This document shows positions 4,770 to 63,965 of a stretch of DNA of 64,000 nt, piece by piece. Origin of the DNA: a virus (Duplodnaviria > Heunggongvirae > Uroviricota > Caudoviricetes). The DNA lies in IMG/VR virus record IMGVR_UViG_3300047317_001031, positions 64,001 through 128,000 of that record. The stretch is one strand, 5' to 3'. Both the position numbers and the translations under genes were made by a program. Under the pieces are notes generated by a model. It was given only the letters and a program-made list of their open reading frames with translations, ran no database searches and was not told the DNA's origin. Position 1 is the first letter of the stretch; each line of letters opens with the position of its first letter.

Positions 4770-4985
4770 TAGAACTTACATTGACGATCGTGAATCTTCC
4801 GTCCTCCATTTCGGAAGCACGACGAAGACTCGGCTATTTCCGGGCTTTAGGCCGGGGAGCGCGTCAAGAACCTGCCTTGTCTCTCTTTGGGACTCCATGC
4901 AGCGAGGATCGCATATATAAGGAAGACGTGAGAACGGGCTACGATCCCCTTGAAACGGATATTGATTGCGTGCTAGCGTTTTTGT

Positions 4986-5288
4986 ATGATTTCACGTTCG
5001 AAAAAGAAAAAGACCCGTAAGCCTTCCGCAAAAAAGGCGGCAACCAAAAAGCGCATCCTGAAGAAGGCGGCTTTAAAGCCGGGGAAATTGCTCCGCTTTG
5101 ACGGGATAAAGGAGACCATCCAGGAGGCCCTGGACGAGCGTGATACCGTGCTTCTCGCGGAGATGGAGCGTATGCATCAGTCTCTTAAGCGCGTTGAGGA
5201 GATCCTCTCAAAGTGCGTCGTTGAGGAGACTGTAGCGACCGAGGGCGACGATAGCGAACCCTTAATCGAAAAGACGTATGAGGACTGA
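4986..5288 (+). CDS. Lys-rich hypothetical protein
   Basis: Basic N-terminus and coiled-coil-like C-terminus; start uncertain. Confidence 0.5.
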   Translation: MISRSKKKKTRKPSAKKAATKKRILKKAALKPGKLLRFDGIKETIQEALDERDTVLLAEMERMHQSLKRVEEILSKCVVEETVATEGDDSEPLIEKTYED

Positions 5289-8422: not shown

Positions 8423-9303
8423 ACCTACAGAAAATTCTTATTATTGGCGGAAGCGGGCAACTCGGAACCGCGCTCCGTGAAGTGTTCTCGGATAAGCAGA
8501 TTAAGTATCCGACGCATCAAGAACTTATGCTTAGTCTCGTTGATTATCCTGAAGACGGCGGAACGCCTTTCGAGAAAGCGATCCAAGGCGTTGATCTTGT
8601 TATCAACGCGGCAGCTTATCATAATGTACGTGAGTGTGAAGAAAACCCTAGCGTTAGTTTTCAGCTAAACGCTATCAAGGTCGGATACATGGCGAAGGCG
8701 TGTGCTAAACGCGATATGCCTTTCGTAACGGTATCAACGGATTATGTTTTTGAAGGCGAGAGGAGGGAATACTCCCCATATTCTCCTTGTAACCCGCTCA
8801 ACGTGTACGGTGTGTCCAAGTTGGCGGGAGAACACCTCGTATTGAATGCTAATTCGCGATCGACTATCATCCGAACTGCGGGGCTTTATGGGCCGAGCGG
8901 ATTCTCAGGGAAAGGCCCTCATTTCCTGGAACGCGTTCTTCGTATGACGGAATCCCGCGAAACGTTCCGAGCTGTGGATGATGTATTTTTCTCCCCGAGT
9001 TACGCTCCTTACGTAGCAACGGCCATGCGGGAGATAATCGAATCAGAAGATTACGGCGTTCGTCATGTTGCTGGCACAGGATGCGTTTCATGGTTTGAAT
9101 TCGCGAGATATGCTCGGTATGTTGCCTTTAGCGGAACGGCGTACGACATAGGAATTATTGAGCCGATCAAGATCGCAAGTTTGAACGAGCCGTTTACTCG
9201 CCCGGAAAAGGTTGATCTCGTTAGCAAAAAATCTTTTATGCCGCGATGGGAACGCGGAGTCGAAGAATACATACATCAACGATCTACAAGAAAGAATATG
9301 TGA
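8419..9303 (+). CDS. rfbD: dTDP-4-dehydrorhamnose reductase
   Basis: GGSGQLG, INAAAY, STDYVFEG, PLNVYGVSKLAGE. Confidence 0.92.
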   Translation: MNLQKILIIGGSGQLGTALREVFSDKQIKYPTHQELMLSLVDYPEDGGTPFEKAIQGVDLVINAAAYHNVRECEENPSVSFQLNAIKVGYMAKACAKRDMPFVTVSTDYVFEGERREYSPYSPCNPLNVYGVSKLAGEHLVLNANSRSTIIRTAGLYGPSGFSGKGPHFLERVLRMTESRETFRAVDDVFFSPSYAPYVATAMREIIESEDYGVRHVAGTGCVSWFEFARYARYVAFSGTAYDIGIIEPIKIASLNEPFTRPEKVDLVSKKSFMPRWERGVEEYIHQRSTRKNM

Positions 9304-55279: not shown

Positions 55280-55816
55280 ATGGGAAGACCTATTGTCGAT
55301 ATGGTTGGACGTAAGTATGGGAGGCTAACGGTGGAGTCTCGCGCTCCCATAAAGAGGCAACGATTTGACCAGGCAACCTGGAATTGTATCTGTGAATGCG
55401 GAAACAAAATCGTCTTGCCGGGGAGCTTTCTTCGGGGAGGTTCATATAAAAGCTGTGGTTGTTTCCGACGCGATAGGATGGGGCAAGTTTTCAGGAAGCA
55501 TGGCAAGTCAAAAACCCCGCAGTATTGCGCTTTCTATGATGCTCGCAAGAGATCCATAGAATATAGTCTCCCATTTGATATTGAGCCGGAAGATATCATT
55601 ATACCTGAAACGTGTCCGGTTCTTGGTGTCAAACTTGTAAGCGGTGGCCCGCGAGACAATGCTCCATCACTAGATCGTGTTATCCCTGAACTTGGGTATA
55701 CGCGCGGGAATATACGGGTCATATCATTTCGCGCAAATCGCATAAAATCGGATGCGAGAATCATTGATCTTGAGGCAGTTATAAAGTATATTCGTGAGGC
55801 AACTTGCGATATCTAA
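55280..55816 (+). CDS. His-Me/HNH-type homing endonuclease
   Basis: GRKYGRLTV..W.C.CECG..KSCGC; PSLDRV...GY..GNI.VIS..AN; GGAGG RBS. Confidence 0.8.
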   Translation: MGRPIVDMVGRKYGRLTVESRAPIKRQRFDQATWNCICECGNKIVLPGSFLRGGSYKSCGCFRRDRMGQVFRKHGKSKTPQYCAFYDARKRSIEYSLPFDIEPEDIIIPETCPVLGVKLVSGGPRDNAPSLDRVIPELGYTRGNIRVISFRANRIKSDARIIDLEAVIKYIREATCDI

Positions 55817-58263
55817 GTGTATGCTCTGGAATCGAAAGCGCGAGCGTAGCTTTTGAACCTTTAGGTTGGGTCCCCGTAGCATTCGCAGAGATCGATCCGT
55901 TTGCATGCGCTGTTCTCAAACACCGTTTTCCGCATGTACCGAATCTCGGCGATTTTACAAAGATAGGATTAGATGATGTCGGAGCAGTTGACCTTATTGT
56001 CGGAGGAACGCCTTGTTTCGGAGCAGGAACCCTGATACTCACGAAACAGGGATTCCATCCTATTGAGGAAGTCAAAATCGGCGATATGGTTTTAACTCAC
56101 AAGGGCCGATATCGCCCCGTTACAGCAGTTGGATCGAAAATTGCACCAACAGTCAAGCTATGCGCTCAAGGAACAAGCGGAACAATAACGACAAAGGAAC
56201 ATCGGTTTCTCGTTGCGGATGTTCAACGTTGGGCTACTCATGAAAACGGGAAAAGTATTCGAAAACTTGAACGACACAAAGAAGAGTGGAGAGAGATCAG
56301 CAAGAGCATAGGATCGTACGTCGCTTCTCCGCAGGAATTTCCGTCGCTGATCATTCCGCCGATTTCGCTTAAAGGACGTGAGTTTCCATTTGAGATAAAA
56401 AACAAGCAAGACTTCTTTTGGATCATCGGGGCTTGGGTTGGAAATGGATGGGTTCAGATAGACCGGCGACGCGGACGAGCCGTTATATCTGCACGCAAAG
56501 GGAAGAAGGCTCAGGAAATGGCAGAGCACCTTTCCGCAGGGATCTATAATTTCTGCGAGGTCAGTGAATCCACGTCGCAGAAATTTCACATTGCGTCACG
56601 CCCATTGGCTCGATGGCTTTCACAAGAGTTTGGATCAGGCGCCGTTAATAAACAAATTCCGTCGTGGCTTTTGGGCTCCGAAAAAGAATTACGTGGGGCG
56701 TTTATGGAGGGTTATCTTGCGACGGACGGATGTATTCCGTTGGGAAAGCCCTATATGTCGTTCACAACGGTCTCACGGAAATTGGCTTTCGGGATTCGCA
56801 TGCTTGCACAGTCGCTTGGTTTTTCCGTAAGTGTTCATCTGCATATTCCTCCGACTACATGCATCATCGAGGGACGAACCGTTAATCAGCGACCTCTCTA
56901 CACGATTCGCGTCCCTAAAGATGCACGATCATCGTGGGCGCGGGACAGTTATCGTTTTGGGTTGGTTCGGAAAGTTGAAGAAACCGGATCATTGGATCGT
57001 GTATATGACATCACCGTGGAAGAGGATCATTCGTATGTCGCAGATGGATTTTGCGTTCACAACTGCCAAGACTTCTCCGTTGCGGGACTCCGAGCGGGGA
57101 TGGATGGAAAGCGTGGTCAACTCACGATCGAATTCATTCATCTTCTTGAGCGAATTCGGCCCCGCTGGGTGGTTTGGGAAAACGTCCCCGGCGTCTTGTC
57201 AAGTGACGACGGACGGGCGTTTGGAACCTTTCTCGGAGCGTTGGGGAAACTCGGGTATGGGTTCGCTTACCGGATTCTTAACGCTGAATACTTCGGTGTT
57301 CCACAACGACGCAACCGCGTCTTCGTTGTCGGATATCTTGGAGACTGGCGACCTCCCGCAGCGGTATTATTTAACAAAGATAGCTTGTGCCGGAATCCTC
57401 CGCCGAGCAGAAAAACGGGGGAGATCGCTGCCCCCCTCCTTGCGAGCGGCGTTGGAGCAGGCGGCGGGGCTTCCGACAACTCCGCAATAGCGAATCACCT
57501 CGTAGCGAATGCCTTGACGGGGAATGCCTACGCAGATCGCGCCGGAGAAGAAACGAATCTCATCGCGCATACGCTTCGAGGCGAAGGCTTTGATGCATCA
57601 GAAGATGGGACGGGGCGCGGAATTCCGCTCGTCGCCGCATTTTTAGGAGGCCAATCTTCACAAGCAAGAAGCCTCGCCTATAGCGAATCGGTTTTCCCTA
57701 CGCTTAAGGCCGCTTCAAGCGGAACGAATCAAGTCCCGAGTATAGTTGCGGTCGTAAATGGAAATAGCACGCCCGAAGTTTCCATGGATATCGCTATGCC
57801 CTTACGAGCGAACGACGGAAGCGGGAATCGACAAGCGATTTTAGCGTTTGATACGACGCAGATTACCTCGCCTCAAAGCAGAAGCCATCCGAAGCCGGGA
57901 GATCCATGTCATCCGCTAGCAGCGGCAGCGCACGCCCCCGCAATCGCTTTTCAGCCAAAAGCATCCGTCACGCAAAGTATGAGCATCGGCGAAACGTGCC
58001 CGACGATCGGAACGACGAAAGAACCGGGAGTTTATACTCGCATGGCGATACGGAGATTAACTCCTACTGAGTGCGAAAGACTACAGAATTTTCCTGATAA
58101 TTTTACGTTAGTCCCTTATCGCAGGAAACTCGCAAAAGATGGCCCACGATATAGGGCGATCGGGAATAGCATGTGTACTTCCGTTATGTCTTGGATCGGA
58201 AAACGTATTCAACTGGTAGAGGAAATACGAAATGCGAAAGAAAGTTGCTCCACAGAATGTTAA
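55804..58263 (+). CDS. DNA (cytosine-5)-methyltransferase with intein
   Basis: SVCSGI motif I, GGTP-C-QDFS motif IV after splicing, WENVPG, PQRRNRVF, YRAIGNS. Confidence 0.93.
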   Translation: MRYLSVCSGIESASVAFEPLGWVPVAFAEIDPFACAVLKHRFPHVPNLGDFTKIGLDDVGAVDLIVGGTPCFGAGTLILTKQGFHPIEEVKIGDMVLTHKGRYRPVTAVGSKIAPTVKLCAQGTSGTITTKEHRFLVADVQRWATHENGKSIRKLERHKEEWREISKSIGSYVASPQEFPSLIIPPISLKGREFPFEIKNKQDFFWIIGAWVGNGWVQIDRRRGRAVISARKGKKAQEMAEHLSAGIYNFCEVSESTSQKFHIASRPLARWLSQEFGSGAVNKQIPSWLLGSEKELRGAFMEGYLATDGCIPLGKPYMSFTTVSRKLAFGIRMLAQSLGFSVSVHLHIPPTTCIIEGRTVNQRPLYTIRVPKDARSSWARDSYRFGLVRKVEETGSLDRVYDITVEEDHSYVADGFCVHNCQDFSVAGLRAGMDGKRGQLTIEFIHLLERIRPRWVVWENVPGVLSSDDGRAFGTFLGALGKLGYGFAYRILNAEYFGVPQRRNRVFVVGYLGDWRPPAAVLFNKDSLCRNPPPSRKTGEIAAPLLASGVGAGGGASDNSAIANHLVANALTGNAYADRAGEETNLIAHTLRGEGFDASEDGTGRGIPLVAAFLGGQSSQARSLAYSESVFPTLKAASSGTNQVPSIVAVVNGNSTPEVSMDIAMPLRANDGSGNRQAILAFDTTQITSPQSRSHPKPGDPCHPLAAAAHAPAIAFQPKASVTQSMSIGETCPTIGTTKEPGVYTRMAIRRLTPTECERLQNFPDNFTLVPYRRKLAKDGPRYRAIGNSMCTSVMSWIGKRIQLVEEIRNAKESCSTEC
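56014..57063 (+). mobile_element. intein with LAGLIDADG endonuclease (350 aa)
   Basis: CFGAGTLILT...FCVHN then Cys+1; IGAWVGNG and MEGYLATDG blocks. Confidence 0.92.
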
Positions 58264-58691: not shown

Positions 58692-59213
58692 CTGAGAAGT
58701 ACGGGACCATGCGATTTCTGCGGGACAAACCGAAACCTGCGCCCTTCCGATTGGAAGAAGGCCTCCCCCAAAATACATGCGCTTCGTCATCGCGACGGCG
58801 ACGATTGCTATTTATGTGATCTCCCGATACTTTTTGAAGTCCAGGAAAGGAATCCGTGCGCTCCTAGTGTTGAGCATGTCGTCCCGAAGTATCTCGGCGG
58901 GTGCTCTTGCCTATCGAATATAAAACTAGCGCATTATTTTTGCAATCATTGCAAGGGCGGAGGAACCGTAGAAGATTTTTTGCAAGGTAAAATTATCCAT
59001 GCGAGAAAATATATTCTTTGGGTTCTTGTGAATAGTACAAAGAAAACTGATCCGCGTCGCTCCGCATGGCTTATCGCTTCTAAAAGGAATGGAGAATCAA
59101 GAGGATCAAAGGCTTCTATTAAGAGAGAAGAACGCGCTAGGAGGATGTATGAAGGGCGAAATCTATCCGGGGCTATGGTCTTCGAAGTGGGATCATTGGA
59201 CGGGAAAAGTTAA
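58692..59213 (+). CDS. HNH endonuclease, probable CTG start (mostly missed by track)
   Basis: RDGDDCYLC...SVEHVVPK.LGG...SNIKLAHYFCNHCKG; frame open from 58677; GGAGGA 8 nt before CTG. Confidence 0.7.
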   Translation: MRSTGPCDFCGTNRNLRPSDWKKASPKIHALRHRDGDDCYLCDLPILFEVQERNPCAPSVEHVVPKYLGGCSCLSNIKLAHYFCNHCKGGGTVEDFLQGKIIHARKYILWVLVNSTKKTDPRRSAWLIASKRNGESRGSKASIKREERARRMYEGRNLSGAMVFEVGSLDGKS

Positions 59214-59277
59214 GGGCTTCGGTAAGCGATACATCCGGCGTTGGCAGCGGCGGAATGCGAATCGGGATAAGCAATGA
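59149..59277 (+). CDS. 42-aa Arg-rich peptide
   Basis: AGGAGG RBS; GKRYIRRWQRR; ATGA overlap with next gene. Confidence 0.65.
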   Translation: MKGEIYPGLWSSKWDHWTGKVKGFGKRYIRRWQRRNANRDKQ

Positions 59278-59585
59278 AGATCGCGATCAACACGCAATCC
59301 CCTGGAACCTTCGCACTATCCGATGAGGCCATGGATGAGATTCATAAACGCGGCCTTGATCTAGAACATGATGACTATTTCCTCTGCCGCGATGTTCGTA
59401 CTCATTCCATCGTTATTAAAGCGATAGAGTTGCTAGGGGATCAAGCGAATCGGAAGGATCTGTTCGGTGAACGCCCGATGTGCGAAATTAAGATCGTGGA
59501 AATTCCCGACGACGTAATCAACTGGTACATTATGGAAGACGATGCCGGCGTTGAGTCCATCCATGAAGGACGCATATGGAAATGA
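59274..59585 (+). CDS. conserved phage hypothetical protein
   Basis: F.LS.EA...IKIVEIPDDV.W.I.EDD.G.E.IHE. Confidence 0.8.
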   Translation: MKIAINTQSPGTFALSDEAMDEIHKRGLDLEHDDYFLCRDVRTHSIVIKAIELLGDQANRKDLFGERPMCEIKIVEIPDDVINWYIMEDDAGVESIHEGRIWK

Positions 59586-59839
59586 ATACGTACGATCCCA
59601 GGCATCTCCTGATAAAGGCATCCGAGCAATACGGGGAAGAATGGTGGAGCGATCCTGTTGATGCGGATGGGTCTTCCTTATGGGATAAGCGTCTTGCCCA
59701 TATGCGTCATCAGGCCTATATTGATCTATGGTCCCGATACCTTGAATTATATGTTCCCTATTTGAGGAAACTTCTGAAGAAGCATGGTCCGTTTCTCGCG
59801 TATCTTATGATGAGGGAAACTCAGCGTGCGAAAAAGTGA
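59576..59839 (+). CDS. hypothetical protein
   Basis: Operon-packed. Confidence 0.55.
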   Translation: MEMNTYDPRHLLIKASEQYGEEWWSDPVDADGSSLWDKRLAHMRHQAYIDLWSRYLELYVPYLRKLLKKHGPFLAYLMMRETQRAKK

Positions 59840-59963
59840 AGTATTCCCTGATTCCATGAACGTGTTCCCCGATTTCCCAAGTCCGCCTACAAAGCGTTGG
59901 TGCAAGCGCTACCGCTGCCGTTGGTTACGACGACGTGCAAGACGAAGCGTATTCTCAGATTAA
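59826..59963 (+). CDS. 45-aa Arg-rich peptide (not in track)
   Basis: GAGGGA 8 nt before GTG; KRWCKRYRCRWLRRRARR. Confidence 0.55.
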   Translation: MRKSEVFPDSMNVFPDFPSPPTKRWCKRYRCRWLRRRARRSVFSD

Positions 59964-59991
59964 AATCTTTGTTCGGAAATAAGAACAAGGC

Positions 59992-60021
59992 TTGACAAAA
60001 CATATGACGACAGGATACGCT
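59992..60021 (+). promoter_or_regulatory. promoter of tRNA array (TTGACA-N18-TACGCT)
   Basis: Perfect -35; ATG 6 nt after the -10. Confidence 0.7.
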
Positions 60022-60027
60022 CTAGGC

Positions 60028-60168
60028 ATGAGAACCGTAGGCATAGTCTCAGAACAGCCCAAGCCGTCCGCAAAAACAGCGGATTGCTTTAGCTATGCCC
60101 GCCAATCGTGGAATATTATGACCTTGAATTTCGGGAACACGCACGGTTGGAGCGGAACAGGCGGCTAA
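60028..60168 (+). CDS. leaderless codon-diverse leader peptide (46 aa)
   Basis: MRTVGIVSEQPKPSAKTADCFSYARQSWNIMTLNFGNTHGWSGTGG; 38 distinct codons. Confidence 0.7.
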   Translation: MRTVGIVSEQPKPSAKTADCFSYARQSWNIMTLNFGNTHGWSGTGG

Positions 60169-60232
60169 GTCGGAAGGTAGTCTCAATCAAGTTTGAGAGC
60201 ACCTCTCGGCAATAGCCGGGGGGTGTTTCTCT
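60169..60232 (+). terminator. attenuator: antiterminator 60169-78/60201-10 versus terminator 60200-10/60215-25 plus T-rich tail
   Basis: CACCTCTCGGC-AATA-GCCGGGGGGTG-TTTCTCTT; GTCGGAAGGT pairs 9/10 with ACCTCTCGGC. Confidence 0.75.
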
Positions 60233-60237
60233 TATAT

Positions 60238-60314
60238 GGGGTCGGATGCCGAAGCGTCGAGGCGCATGCCTGTGAAGCATGATCAAGCGGATTCGAGTTC
60301 CGCTCGACCCACCA
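60238..60314 (+). tRNA. tRNA-His(GTG), G-1 encoded, A73
   Basis: Cloverleaf; loop CTGTGAA; CCA. Confidence 0.92.
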
Positions 60315-60320
60315 AGTTTG

Positions 60321-60338
60321 AACCTTGAAAATTGAATA
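60321..60338 (+). promoter_or_regulatory. boxA-like antitermination element
   Basis: AACCTTGAAAATTGAATA resembles the rrn-leader CTTTGAAAACTGAA motif. Confidence 0.4.
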
Positions 60339-60350
60339 CGAAACAAAATC

Positions 60351-60442
60351 GCCTGCTTAATGTAACGATAGCATGGCCTGTTTGCTCATGGGATTCTCAT
60401 GCGCAAACAGGAGAGAGACGTTCAACTCGTCAGCGGGCGCCA
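60351..60442 (+). tRNA. tRNA-like RNA with a 20-nt insertion in the anticodon loop (identity unclear)
   Basis: 7-bp acceptor, D arm, T loop TTCAACT, CCA; anticodon arm extended. Confidence 0.6.
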
Positions 60443-60447
60443 ATTTT

Positions 60448-60536
60448 GGAGAGATGGCCGAATCAGGTAAGGCAACGCACTGCTAAGGCGTCGAGTCCGT
60501 AAGGATGTATGGGTTCAAATCCCATTCTCTCCGCCA
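60448..60536 (+). tRNA. tRNA-Ser(GCT)
   Basis: Long variable arm; G73; CCA. Confidence 0.95.
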
Positions 60537-60540
60537 ATAT

Positions 60541-60612
60541 GCCGGGGGTTCCAGTGAACAGCGAAGTCTCCAAAACTTCGCGCGCTCAGATCAGCACTGA
60601 GACCCGGTGCCA
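60541..60612 (+). tRNA. atypical tRNA-Trp(CCA)
   Basis: Loop CTCCAAA; 4-nt D loop, 7-bp anticodon stem, T loop ATCAGCA; CCA. Confidence 0.7.
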
Positions 60613-60613
60613 T

Positions 60614-60689
60614 CCCAGGATAGCTCAGACGGAAGAGCACTTGTTTGAAGCACAAGGGGTCGCGGGCTCGAAATCCGCTCCTGGGGCCA
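60614..60689 (+). tRNA. tRNA-Phe(GAA)
   Basis: Cloverleaf; G73; T loop CTCGAAA; CCA. Confidence 0.9.
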
Positions 60690-60708
60690 ATAAAATCGGA
60701 GAACATGC

Positions 60709-60888
60709 ATGACCGGAGATCGCACACGATACTTTCCGAGTATCCTGTACGTTGACTTGATTCAGTATATCGACTTCGCAACAACGAAACGATGGAAACG
60801 CCGTCGCGTTCGTCGGGATTCAAAGCGGTACACGCAAGAGGGGTCTGCGGAACTTGCGTGTGGGATATCGTCAACCTCGCAGCGATGA
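60709..60888 (+). CDS. 59-aa Arg-rich peptide inside the tRNA array (not in track)
   Basis: GGAGA RBS; KRWKRRRVRRDSKR. Confidence 0.55.
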   Translation: MTGDRTRYFPSILYVDLIQYIDFATTKRWKRRRVRRDSKRYTQEGSAELACGISSTSQR

Positions 60889-60911
60889 TCGCGAAAAATG
60901 CGAGGAAACAT

Positions 60912-60987
60912 ATCCCCGTAGCTCAGTGAATAGAGCGTCTGGCTACGAACTAGAAGGCCGCGAGTTTGATCCTCGCCGGGGATTCCA
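60912..60987 (+). tRNA. tRNA-Arg(ACG)
   Basis: Cloverleaf; CCA. Confidence 0.93.
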
Positions 60988-60991
60988 TAAC

Positions 60992-61065
60992 GGGGATGTC
61001 GCCAAGCGGCCAAGGCAATCGGTTTGCACCCGATCATTTCGAGAGTTCGAGTCTCTCCATCTCCA
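60992..61065 (+). tRNA. tRNA-Ala(TGC)
   Basis: G3:U70 present. Confidence 0.93.
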
Positions 61066-61078
61066 CAAGAAAGGGACT

Positions 61079-61255
61079 ATGATGATCGGCTACGGCGTCG
61101 AGAGACAAATCCCATGTTGCCCCGGCCATGACAAAACGGTATGGCCCGGTAACGCAAGACGTAAAAGAGAAACTGTAGAACGCTTACATCGTATCGCTAA
61201 AAAGCGCGGGCGACGTGAGGGGAAAAGACAAGTTGAAGAACAGATAAATGGATAA
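61079..61255 (+). CDS. 58-aa basic peptide with CCPGHD motif
   Basis: AAGGGA RBS; HRIAKKRGRREGKRQ. Confidence 0.7.
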   Translation: MMIGYGVERQIPCCPGHDKTVWPGNARRKRETVERLHRIAKKRGRREGKRQVEEQING

Positions 61256-61259
61256 TCAT

Positions 61260-61333
61260 TCCTCGCTCGTTCAAAGGTAGGACGGCTGGTTGTTACCCAG
61301 CGAATCGGTGTTCGAGTCACTGGCGAGGAGCCA
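61260..61333 (+). tRNA. tRNA-Asn(GTT)
   Basis: Cloverleaf; G73; CCA. Confidence 0.95.
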
Positions 61334-61339
61334 ATCTTC

Positions 61340-61414
61340 GTGCGCGTGAAGGGAATCGGTATACCTCCGTCGCTTAAAACGATGGGCTTGCAAGTTCGAG
61401 GCTTGTCGCGCACA
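61340..61414 (+). tRNA. tRNA-Leu(TAA), short variable loop
   Basis: Loop CTTAAAA; A73. Confidence 0.88.
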
Positions 61415-61419
61415 TTATT

Positions 61420-61797
61420 CTAGATAACCCCAAACTGATTCTTCACTTCTTGAAGTTGTTTCCCAATCTCCTCAATAATTTCGTCTTTAAGGCCGATTTG
61501 AAAATGAAGGGCATTGACGATACGGCCTCGCTCCTCAAGTAGCGCGTCTAAGAGACGAAACGTGTCTTCTTTAAGGGAAATAATTTCTTGTTGAGAAGAA
61601 ATTGTTTGCTTGTTCGCAGAAATGGTCTCTTCCAATAATGCCAAATGCGTAATAAGATCATCGTTTGATTTGAGTATATCTTCCCCCGTCTTAATCGTAT
61701 CTTTTAATATGTTGTTTGTTTTTACGAGAAAGTAATAATTCCCGATCCCATACATGAGAAGAAGAACCATGACCGAAACGATGGAGATTTCGTACAT
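61420..61797 (-). CDS. TM plus coiled-coil protein antisense within the tRNA array
   Basis: N-terminal TM helix, heptad pattern; occupies a tRNA-free gap. Confidence 0.6.
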   Translation of the reverse strand: MYEISIVSVMVLLLMYGIGNYYFLVKTNNILKDTIKTGEDILKSNDDLITHLALLEETISANKQTISSQQEIISLKEDTFRLLDALLEERGRIVNALHFQIGLKDEIIEEIGKQLQEVKNQFGVI

Positions 61798-61860
61798 GCG
61801 AGAATAGTTCGTACAAGGGATGCCCGATCCTATCGAGGATATGATGAAATTAGGAAGCAT

Positions 61861-61934
61861 GCTCCACTAGCACAATTGGTAGATGCAGCGGATTCAAGTC
61901 CCGCGTGTTCTCCGTTCGAGTCGGAGGTGGAGCA
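61861..61934 (+). tRNA. tRNA-Leu(CAA), short variable loop
   Basis: Loop TTCAAGT; A73. Confidence 0.88.
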
Positions 61935-61941
61935 TAATCTT

Positions 61942-62016
61942 CTCGGTGTAGCAGAGCGGTACATGCGGCAGGTTTAGGCCCTGCGTCTTCGGGAGGTTCG
62001 AATCCTCTCACCGAGA
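61942..62016 (+). tRNA. tRNA-Leu(TAG), short variable loop
   Basis: Loop TTTAGGC; A73. Confidence 0.9.
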
Positions 62017-62019
62017 TAT

Positions 62020-62094
62020 GGGGATGTAGCAGAACGGTATATGCGCTACCTTGAGGAGGTAGGTCTCTTGCTGGTTCGAGTCCAGTCTTCCCCA
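62020..62094 (+). tRNA. tRNA-Leu(GAG), short variable loop
   Basis: Loop TTGAGGA; A73. Confidence 0.9.
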
Positions 62095-62109
62095 TTTGAC
62101 AAAATACAT

Positions 62110-62188
62110 GAGCGGATGCGTGAGAGGTTGAAACGGATGGGCTGTAACCCCATTGGAAACCGCGTTGGTTCGAATCCAACTCCGCTCA
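62110..62188 (+). tRNA. tRNA-Tyr(GTA)
   Basis: Loop CTGTAAC; 10-nt variable arm. Confidence 0.92.
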
Positions 62189-62195
62189 TATTCCA

Positions 62196-62267
62196 CTCCC
62201 AGTAACTCAGTGGTAGAGTGCCTTCCTCATAAGAAGATCGGCGCATGTTCGAATCATGCCTGGGAGA
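62196..62267 (+). tRNA. tRNA(CAT): Met or Ile2
   Basis: Loop CTCATAA; no initiator features. Confidence 0.85.
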
Positions 62268-62271
62268 CTAT

Positions 62272-62344
62272 GCGAGAGTATATCAGTTGGCAGATAGTTT
62301 CCCTCATAAGGAAAAGGTCGGCGGTTCAATTCCGCTCTCTCGCT
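62272..62344 (+). tRNA. tRNA(CAT): Met or Ile2
   Basis: Loop CTCATAA. Confidence 0.88.
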
Positions 62345-62856
62345 CTTTCCATTGCGCGTTGCCAAACTCGTCCGCATAATACTTGAGAAGCGTGATGCGG
62401 CGTAACATTGTAATATCTCGCGATTACACCAACTCTTACACCTGCTGCACGTTTTTCAAACATCTCTAAAACTTGCTTCTCCGTGAGTTTCGAGGATTTA
62501 TGGTTCTCACCACAAGCGATAGATGCATCTGGCATCTTCATGCCTCTAGTATAAAAAAGTCTTCCTTTATCGCGACAATCTATCATGTTTGCGCTTGGCG
62601 TTCCGCTAAAAAGATGAAGCGGATTCACGCAAGAAGGATTATCACACGTATGGCATACAAAAAGTGATGGATCAATCCATCTTCCCCTATGTAGGGCCAA
62701 AGAAACTCGGGTTGCTTGATAGAGTCTCCCCTGAATTTTTATTCGACCATATCCATTGGATGTTGCTCTCCGCCAAATCCAGCATTCTCCTACGACGATA
62801 TATGCACGATTGAAATTTTCACGTAATGCGTCCGTAATAATAAATGGAATTTCCAT
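62326..62856 (-). CDS. HNH homing endonuclease, antisense in the tRNA array
   Basis: GECWIW...GYG...VCHTCDNPSCVNPLHLFSGT..AN; C-terminal KLTE..V HTH. Confidence 0.9.
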   Translation of the reverse strand: MEIPFIITDALRENFNRAYIVVGECWIWRRATSNGYGRIKIQGRLYQATRVSLALHRGRWIDPSLFVCHTCDNPSCVNPLHLFSGTPSANMIDCRDKGRLFYTRGMKMPDASIACGENHKSSKLTEKQVLEMFEKRAAGVRVGVIARYYNVTPHHASQVLCGRVWQRAMERARERN

Positions 62857-62910
62857 GTGTTAATTTTCTCACGCAATTAACAAAGATGTCAACACGTTGC
62901 TTTTCACTAT

Positions 62911-62987
62911 CGAGATGTAGTTCAGCTTGGTAGAACGCCGACTTCGGGAGCCGGAGGCCGCAGGTTCGATTCCTGTCATCTCGACCA
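62911..62987 (+). tRNA. tRNA-Pro(CGG)
   Basis: C1-G72, A73, CCA. Confidence 0.95.
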
Positions 62988-62997
62988 TTTCTTTTAC

Positions 62998-63073
62998 GCC
63001 GACGTAGCTCATGTGGTAGAGTACCGCCCTTGTAATGCGGATGTGATCGGTTCGAGCCCGATCGTCGGCTCCA
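62998..63073 (+). tRNA. tRNA-Thr(TGT)
   Basis: Cloverleaf; CCA. Confidence 0.93.
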
Positions 63074-63078
63074 ATCAT

Positions 63079-63152
63079 CGAGGAGTGGTGTAACGGTAAC
63101 ACGGGTGCTTTGGGAGCATTTGATCGGAGTTCAATTCTCCGCTCTTCGACCA
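63079..63152 (+). tRNA. tRNA-Pro(TGG)
   Basis: C1-G72; CCA. Confidence 0.93.
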
Positions 63153-63168
63153 TTTATCCGCCGTCGTA

Positions 63169-63234
63169 GGGACCGTGGCGCGGATGTATACATGGCTGCA
63201 TAAGGCGCGTCGAGTGCAGTGCAAAACGGTCTCA
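63169..63234 (+). ncRNA. unassigned 66-nt RNA with acceptor-like closing stem
   Basis: GGGACCGT/ACGGTCTC stem flanked by tRNAs; no cloverleaf. Confidence 0.4.
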
Positions 63235-63237
63235 CTT

Positions 63238-63313
63238 GTCGGTGTAGTTTAGCGGCCAAAATCGGTGACTTTTAATCACCTTATCGTGGGTTCGAGTCCC
63301 ACCACCGACCCCA
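63238..63313 (+). tRNA. tRNA-Lys(TTT)
   Basis: Loop CTTTTAA; CCA. Confidence 0.92.
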
Positions 63314-63319
63314 ATCTTT

Positions 63320-63392
63320 ACCCCCGTAGCGAAACGGATAACGCATCCCTTTCCTAGAGGGAAGATACTCGGTTCAATTCCGAGCGGGGGTT
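63320..63392 (+). tRNA. tRNA-Arg(CCT)
   Basis: Loop TTCCTAG. Confidence 0.93.
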
Positions 63393-63414
63393 CATCATCA
63401 AGGAGAAGATAGAA

Positions 63415-63471
63415 ATGTGTGAACATGGCGTTGCCGTTCATGTCCCTTGCGTGGAGTGCGAATCACAATAG
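63415..63471 (+). CDS. 18-aa Cys/His micropeptide
   Basis: AGGAG RBS; MCEHGVAVHVPCVECESQ. Confidence 0.45.
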   Translation: MCEHGVAVHVPCVECESQ

Positions 63472-63486
63472 CTCCGCGCTTCATAA

Positions 63487-63560
63487 TCCCGAGTCGTCTA
63501 ACGGTAGGACGGAACCCTCTGAAGGTTCTTATCGGTGTTCGAATCACTGCTCGGGAGCCA
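63487..63560 (+). tRNA. tRNA-Gln(CTG)
   Basis: U1-A72; G73; CCA. Confidence 0.95.
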
Positions 63561-63564
63561 ATTC

Positions 63565-63638
63565 GCGCGGGTAGCCTAGTGGATTCAGGCATCGAGCTTC
63601 TACCTCGAACGACGGGAGTTCAAATCTCCCTCCGCGCT
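63565..63638 (+). tRNA. tRNA-Arg(TCT)
   Basis: Loop CTTCTAC. Confidence 0.93.
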
Positions 63639-63641
63639 CAT

Positions 63642-63712
63642 TCCGGGTTCGGCTAATGGTAAGCCGATGGTTTTTGGTACCATCTATCGGAGTTCGAGTC
63701 TCTGGCCCGGAG
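63642..63712 (+). tRNA. tRNA-Gln(TTG)
   Basis: U1-A72; G73. Confidence 0.92.
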
Positions 63713-63716
63713 TCAT

Positions 63717-63790
63717 GCACCCGTAGTTTAGTGATAGAATTCCTGATTGGTATTCAGAGGGCGCGGTTTTGATTACCGCCGGGTGCTCCA
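63717..63790 (+). tRNA. tRNA-Thr(GGT)
   Basis: Loop TTGGTAT; CCA. Confidence 0.9.
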
Positions 63791-63814
63791 TCTTTCACGA
63801 TATAATTGCTTCAT

Positions 63815-63892
63815 GCTTCCGTAGCTCAGTTTGGTAGAGCGTCTCATTCGTAACGAGAAGGTTCATCGGTTCGATCCCGATCGGAAGCTCCA
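63815..63892 (+). tRNA. tRNA-Thr(CGT)
   Basis: Loop TTCGTAA; CCA. Confidence 0.93.
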
Positions 63893-63893
63893 T

Positions 63894-63965
63894 GCGTTCG
63901 TGGCCTAACGGACAAGGCGACAGTCTTCGAAATTGTTGATGGCGGTTCAACTCCGCCCGAACGCT
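63894..63965 (+). tRNA. tRNA-Arg(TCG)
   Basis: Loop CTTCGAA. Confidence 0.92.

Follow-up and report, generated by a model that had tools for sequence, protein, structure and literature searches.

A candidate leader-peptide attenuator with a non-redundant set of codons at the head of a phage tRNA island

Known attenuators and the phage leader

Leader-peptide attenuators control the amino-acid operons of enterobacteria, as in trpL, hisL, pheL, leuL, thrL, and the multivalent ilvL. The element described here sits right at the 5′ boundary of a phage tRNA island and has the parts of the trpL/hisL type: a promoter, a short open reading frame (ORF), a stop codon beside the 5′ strand of an antiterminator, and an antiterminator strand held in common with an intrinsic terminator ahead of the regulated genes. 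Its predicted logic is likewise that of trpL/hisL, with a stalled ribosome giving readthrough and a finished ribosome giving termination. It differs from this type in that the regulated genes would be tRNAs rather than biosynthetic enzymes, that the leader avoids repeated decoding classes and has no run of codons for a single amino acid, that the leader mRNA is predicted to be leaderless, and that the ORF has 46 codons versus 14 to 32. It also has no clear 1:2 pause or anti-antiterminator hairpin and no sequence homology to these leaders. Regulatory codons are not concentrated on a sensed amino acid, and no amino acid is enriched in the leader. Because such codons are not concentrated and the controlled genes would be tRNA genes, we regard the element as a variant of leader-peptide attenuators and not as a member of that class.

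The element also resembles general-stalling attenuators, such as the mef/msr(D) leader (PMC4335068) and those treated in surveys of premature terminators (PMC2965389), in which a uORF with a terminator and an antiterminator reports slowed translation and not one metabolite. Unlike the phage leader, attenuators of this type respond to ribosome-targeting drugs at specific arrest peptides and control resistance genes, and no codon non-redundancy is known to have been described for them. Like T-box riboswitches, the element would attenuate transcription in response to the state of tRNA and act on genes connected with translation, but T-boxes bind uncharged tRNA directly, via a specifier loop and the T-box motif, without requiring an ORF. 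A T-box was rejected at this locus, as an Rfam search of 59992-60237 at E values up to 1 returned no T-box and no other family.

The timing and regulation of phage tRNA genes are barely known, and current work asks why phages carry them, whether for codon supply or to replace tRNAs destroyed by host defenses. Two papers (PMC10264068, PMC11464382) present phage tRNAs as a counter-measure to tRNA-targeting host defenses, which gives a plausible rationale for a broad phage tRNA set that is needed once host tRNAs are lost; they appear to concern the tRNAs themselves, unlike the proposed regulation of an array considered here. In the literature we found no description of attenuated or regulated expression of a tRNA array, nor of a sensor of the kind that an earlier, sequence-only reading of this DNA had proposed and believed to be new.

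We analyzed a 64,000-nucleotide window (bases 64001-128000) of a 128,918-bp viral record from rhizosphere metagenomes; positions below refer to the window unless given as genome positions. Among its products are a terminase and portal, capsid, tape measure, and baseplate proteins, each with no more than a distant relationship to cultured phages. A 127-nt overlap between the genome termini suggests that the assembly is circular or terminally redundant. The tRNA genes form a single island, all on the + strand, that begins at 60239, runs to the end of the genome, and resumes at the genome start as far as about 8.85 kb. It holds about 38 tRNAs over its whole length, where 25 or more had previously been noted, and covers nearly every amino acid. 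The features of the leader and of the window part of the island are collected in Table 1. We give an even chance to the reading that the element is a ribosome-mediated transcription attenuator of the leader-peptide type, known from one sequence, which would sample many tRNA species and gate the phage tRNA island. If this is true, the leader would exemplify a novel principle of attenuator design, in which a near-whole decoding repertoire is read in a single pass and many tRNAs are sensed at once in place of one amino acid, and it would tie the expression of phage tRNAs directly to the condition of the host tRNA pool.

Table 1. Predicted features of the leader and the adjoining tRNA genes (window positions)
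Feature	Position	Strand	Details
Promoter	59992..60021	+	-35 TTGACA 59992-59997, 18-nt spacer, -10 TACGCT 60016-60021, then 6 nt to ATG 60028
Leader ORF	60028..60168	+	60028-60165 = 46 codons, TAA 60166-60168; leaderless (predicted)
Antiterminator, long hairpin	60162..60218	+	-27.8 kcal/mol; 5′ strand starts at the stop codon
Intrinsic terminator	60195..60237	+	16-pair G+C-rich hairpin 60195-60231, loop AAUA; T-rich run TTTCTCTTATAT 60226-60237
tRNA-His (GTG)	60239..60314	+	First gene downstream of the terminator; Rfam tRNA score of 32.1 bits (60240-60311)
tRNA island, window part	60350..63965	+	23 tRNA genes and one tRNA-like gene

Promoter, predicted leaderless start, and proposed RNA switch

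The promoter and the ATG 6 nt beyond it are present as the sequence-only reading had placed them. We counted six occurrences of the layout TTGNNN-N18-TANNNT-N6-ATG in the genome; every one of their ATGs begins an ORF, with lengths of 46 (the leader), 86, 100, 106, 115, and 417 codons. As a control, the other 43 combinations of spacer and offset average 1.4 occurrences, one third of those with ORFs. That this exact layout always opens an ORF supports a leaderless start at ATG 60028. Four members of the layout have a nearly identical -10 element, TAGCGT, with six T-rich nucleotides between it and the ATG. Near-identical TTGNNN-N18-TAGCGT promoters are found at 4962-5288 in the window and, outside it, at genome positions 58979-59272, 59570-59950, and 59970-60323, with ORFs of 86 to 115 codons that lack a Shine-Dalgarno sequence. 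Judged by their sequences, these leaderless promoters probably represent the phage's early promoter class, and the family points to a host that may be able to translate leaderless mRNAs.

A gene for a 607-amino-acid TnpB-like protein has an N17/N7 version of the layout and shares TCTAGGCA before the ATG with the leader. This nuclease gene (genome 15655-17514) starts 7 nt after TTGACA-N17-TAGCGT, with an operator-like inverted repeat, GCCTAGA...TCTAGGC, overlapping its promoter.

Shine-Dalgarno sequences are clear in the structural genes of the phage and absent from these promoter-proximal genes; the sequence has none at a usable distance from ATG 60028. A generic sigma-70 scan did not list the leader promoter, because its -10 element matches TATAAT at only 3 of 6 positions. 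From the sequence, a promoter with a transcription start at or next to ATG 60028 is the most likely reading.

Behind the stop codon, two mutually exclusive hairpins are predicted. The antiterminator comprises an outer stem (60162-60167/60213-60218), a middle stem (60169-60178/60201-60210), and an inner hairpin (60181-60198). Of the 10 positions of the middle stem, 9 pair, as previously noted; two of these pairs are G-U. The antiterminator is the minimum free energy (MFE) structure both of 60150-60240 and of the nascent transcript up to 60212, and it is thus the fold predicted before the 3′ arm of the terminator exists. When the upstream arm was shuffled with the terminator strand fixed, its stability exceeded that of 99.6% of dinucleotide shuffles (P = 0.004). 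In the alternative structure, the partner of 60201-60210 is the G-rich arm beyond the AAUA loop (from 60215), with the T-rich tail and then tRNA-His behind it, again in agreement with the sequence-only reading. This terminator (ΔG of -27.2 kcal/mol, z of -7.2) was listed by a terminator scan and is the global MFE form of the full leader by about 5 kcal/mol; 26 other hairpin and T-tail sites in the genome are of the same style. Strand 60201-60211 is common to the two structures, and their energies are nearly equal (-27.2 versus -27.8 kcal/mol).

The TAA codon lies within the base of the antiterminator and directly adjoins its 5′ strand, 60169-60178, so that a terminating ribosome would cover this strand, given the footprint of a ribosome at a stop codon, which is taken here from general knowledge. 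As a candidate for 1:2 pairing we found one long-range helix of 8 pairs (60029-60036 with 60176-60186), which appears in the full-length MFE structure only and not in shorter nascent folds. The predicted folds contain no strong anti-antiterminator; the default without a ribosome may therefore be readthrough, and the off state would need tight coupling of transcription and translation. On these structure predictions, the attenuator architecture is well supported in silico.

We infer the transcription start, the translation of the leader, the efficiency of termination, and the response to tRNA supply as follows. Host RNA polymerase would initiate at the A of ATG 60028 or beside it and produce a leaderless mRNA, and a ribosome would translate the 46-codon leader while the polymerase proceeds. 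With smooth decoding, the ribosome would reach the TAA and cover 60169 to about 60180, which is the 5′ strand of the antiterminator; with this strand masked, 60195-60231 would fold as the terminator, and transcription would end just before tRNA-His. A stall anywhere in roughly the first 40 codons would instead let the antiterminator form first, with readthrough into the tRNA genes.

A locus without function would consist of a chance ORF in an intergenic spacer, an ordinary terminator, and a fortuitous promoter-like sequence. Such a locus would fit the missing Shine-Dalgarno sequence and the poor -10 match, as well as the facts that a single sequence is at hand and that gene callers did not call the leader ORF. 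For it to hold, however, several independent features would have to coincide: a promoter layout class in which six of six members have ORFs, a codon non-redundancy with a probability of about 1e-6 (see below), an antiterminator whose stability stands out from shuffled sequences, and a position at the head of a tRNA island. We consider it very improbable.

Codon non-redundancy of the leader ORF

The composition of the leader ORF was as the sequence-only reading had described it. All 20 amino acids are present, 38 of the 46 codons are distinct, and codons 1 to 30 are all different, with no box contributing both its NNU and its NNC codon; repetition begins at codon 31 (ATG). When NNU and NNC codons are merged, following a universal decoding rule, there are 45 decoding classes, and the leader holds 30 of them in its first 30 codons and 35 over the whole ORF.

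The earlier birthday-type estimate of about 2e-4 for 30 distinct codons was recomputed as 1.7e-4. For 30 classes in 30 codons, the probability is 7e-7 analytically and 8.5e-7 by simulation (40 million draws, ATG fixed). Under the codon usage of the phage itself it falls to 1e-7, in line with the earlier expectation that real codon bias would make the pattern rarer. Among the 102,922 stop-free 30-codon windows of the genome, those with 29 or 30 classes are exclusively in-frame windows at the leader ORF. At the level of codons, 5 of 102,872 such windows are all distinct, and three of the five lie within the leader ORF. We also counted the run of non-repeating classes from every ATG, GTG, and TTG codon on both strands of the whole genome (11,502 start codons); the longest run was 30 at the leader versus a maximum of 23 elsewhere. 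The other two frames of the same 90 nt hold 21 and 24 classes.

Within the first 30 residues, nine amino acids recur, and every recurrence uses a new decoding class, for which the probability given the peptide is 1.5-2.9e-4. Given the 46-residue peptide, the probability of at least 35 classes over the whole ORF is 2-4e-4. Since non-redundancy persists given the peptide, the signal lies in synonymous codon choice and not only in amino-acid composition. Statistics for the whole ORF, which are less selected, are weaker: 0.9% for at least 38 distinct codons, 0.35% for at least 35 classes, and 2.4% for all 20 amino acids. The non-redundancy statistic was picked post hoc in a scan of about 250,000 windows, and the headline probability is therefore to be discounted by one to three orders of magnitude. 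After this discount, the pattern is hard to ascribe to chance. The codon non-redundancy is thus confirmed, and it is stronger than the earlier calculation had it.

The body of the ORF is not unusually structured (z of -0.74). Such predicted folding is more in keeping with a translated segment than with a structured small RNA, and the latter was rejected for the ORF body. The leader peptide has no match in Pfam or PHROG.

Which tRNAs the leader would sample can be read from its codons. Ten decoding classes are missing (CUY, CUA, CUG, UUA, CCA, CGA, CGG, AGG, GUG, and GAG), most of them for Leu and Arg. The leader has one Leu codon versus four tRNA-Leu genes in the array, and the array encodes tRNAs for the absent CUN and UUA (Leu) and AGG, CGA, and CGG (Arg). 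A leader matched to the anticodons of the phage was rejected: codons cognate to its 34 anticodons are not enriched, with 29 of 46 in Watson-Crick correspondence (63%) versus 56% expected (P = 0.22). The codon set is diverse, yet it is neither complete nor matched to the tRNA set of the phage. The description of the leader as sampling almost the whole tRNA pool ("pan-tRNA") is overstated: 35 of 45 classes are present, ten are absent, and phage-cognate codons are not enriched.

These gaps leave room for a reading in which a working translation-coupled attenuator, or a leaky terminator, sets the expression of the array and the codon non-redundancy is coincidental. The element would then sense the general status of translation or of coupling, like the drug-sensing ribosome attenuators, or merely damp transcription. 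The architecture speaks equally for this reading and for the main one, and the ten missing classes, the lack of a match to the phage tRNA set, the post hoc choice of the statistic, and the failure of five other phages to replicate the pattern (see below) are in its favor. We nevertheless judge coincidence unlikely, because the pattern has a probability of about 9e-7 per ORF and is specific to one frame, because it is the genome-wide extreme by 7 codons, and because it persists given the peptide, at the 2-4e-4 obtained above. By a rough estimate, the count expected by chance is below about 0.01 even with some thousands of leader-like ORFs examined.

If the non-redundancy is instead functional, as the sensing attenuator supposes, a leader with about one codon per decoding class would respond when any of many tRNA species or amino acids, and not one in particular, is in short supply. 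Its most specific form is a multiplexed decoding check, in which one codon for each of 30 to 35 tRNA classes is read and the loss, cleavage, or uncharged state of any single host tRNA stalls the ribosome and switches on the near-complete set of replacement tRNAs of the phage, so that the leader would act as a counter-defense sensor. This form is possible, and we put it forward tentatively; to name anticodon nucleases as the trigger is speculation.

Outside this genome, the run of distinct decoding classes from a start codon offers a simple statistic with which other genomes can be searched. In the tRNA islands of five tRNA-rich phages, XacN1, Atu_ph07, Bxz1, KVP40, and T5 (about 72 kb), runs in ORFs do not exceed 19. 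(Rhizobium phage B1VFA, with only 4 tRNAs, is not among the five.) Codon-diverse uORFs upstream of other phage tRNA arrays, for which the sequence-only reading had suggested a search, were thus not found in these phages. The comparison serves as a negative control for the run statistic and means that the design is not general.

Proposed gating of the tRNA island, and related sequences

The T-rich run of the terminator stops 1 to 2 nt before tRNA-His, which leaves no room for a promoter in between. Further on the + strand, the stretch up to genome position 1009, which spans about 30 tRNA genes, contains no TTGNNN-N17/19-TANNNT promoter, and no promoter motif is repeated in the gaps of the array. 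Weaker sigma-70-like matches lie within the array at 60668 and 61450, so that later blocks of tRNA genes might have an input of their own. A near copy (14 of 16 positions) of the -35 region of the leader (TTGACAAAA...) occurs at 62096-62111, in the 13-nt spacer between tRNA-Leu(GAG) and tRNA-Tyr; no -10 element follows it at the right distance.

The leader could also be a unit of its own, either a leaderless gene encoding a protein of 46 residues or a small RNA of roughly 205 nt with its own terminator. The island would then be transcribed from unrecognized promoters, for example phage-specific middle or late ones, or be processed from longer transcripts, and transcription of the upstream operon (59274-59963) would stop at the hairpin as well. 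The promoter, ORF, and terminator do form a unit that is complete by itself, and with no terminator between the upstream genes and the leader, those genes too would depend on this hairpin. Phage tRNA islands often contain small ORFs and homing endonucleases, of which the HNH gene at 62326-62856 is the example here, and the two weak promoter-like sites would be in keeping with separate input. This account nevertheless leaves no space for a promoter behind the T-tail. Moreover, the peptide has no family or homologue and is low in protein-likeness, an equally stable rival hairpin starting at the stop codon would be superfluous for a simple terminator, and protein coding leaves the synonymous-codon diversification unexplained. 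We assign this account a low probability.

Identical contigs are present in several rhizosphere runs (runs X4 to X7 were compared, with exact matches), which indicates that the leader sequence of the proposed attenuator is real. Lower word shares across runs reflect fragmentary cover and not divergence. No RNA run is among those listed as carrying the sequence. A related contig from another rhizosphere run (X6, low depth) reaches tRNA-His only and not the leader. Its tRNA-His carries two compensatory double changes in the anticodon stem, at 60266/60280 and 60268/60278. In this relative (matched regions 60232-60315 and 60559-60612), the downstream spacer is partly conserved, as TTGAAAATTG-N-ATACGAAA, and the array is ordered differently around tRNA-Ser.

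Searches of phage records, IMG/VR, JGI metagenome contigs, and a collection of 15 billion proteins returned no leader homologous to this one. A blastn search of phage records with 59500-60700 gave tRNA-Ser matches only. For the flanking proteins of 87 and 103 amino acids, IMG/VR and the large protein collection returned only the sequences themselves or homologues of 40 to 47% identity in nonsyntenic contigs. Searches with DnaB and the capsid protein retrieved from IMG/VR a few short contigs with 70% capsid identity, none with tRNAs, and a capsid profile retrieved a single 3.3-kb contig from the metagenome contigs. Patterns built on tRNA-His (IMG/VR) and on tRNA-His with its spacer (metagenome contigs) had no match, and the promoter-motif pattern gave three chance matches inside a coding region in IMG/VR. 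A search for relatives through the methyltransferase reached 50% identity at best. The exact leader peptide is absent from the protein collection; phmmer against 1.84 billion representatives returned long repetitive proteins only, taken as compositional, and an atlas search with the peptide gave nothing above 0.77.

The island and its surroundings contain several unusual genes. tRNA-His itself was missed by ARAGORN and found by Rfam. Behind it, at 60350-60441, lies a tRNA-shaped RNA with an intact acceptor stem and CCA, in which a long hairpin replaces the anticodon loop; ARAGORN assigned it no anticodon, and the related contig of run X6 ends in a similar 3′ end. Two more odd tRNA-like genes are located at genome positions 8779-8853 and 1462-1570. 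One of this pair has a 6-nt anticodon loop with TCA and adjoins a CUA suppressor tRNA, and the other has an insertion of roughly 35 nt. The HNH homing-endonuclease gene lies within the array on the - strand, opposed to the tRNAs, and has its own promoter, TTGACA-N18-GAAAAT (62326-62892 for the locus). A second - strand ORF in the array, 61420-61860, is coiled-coil-like. Upstream of the leader, an 819-amino-acid cytosine methyltransferase (55804-58263) appears to carry an intein, as Pfam domains for Hint, intein splicing, and LAGLIDADG accompany the methylase domain in its closest homologues.
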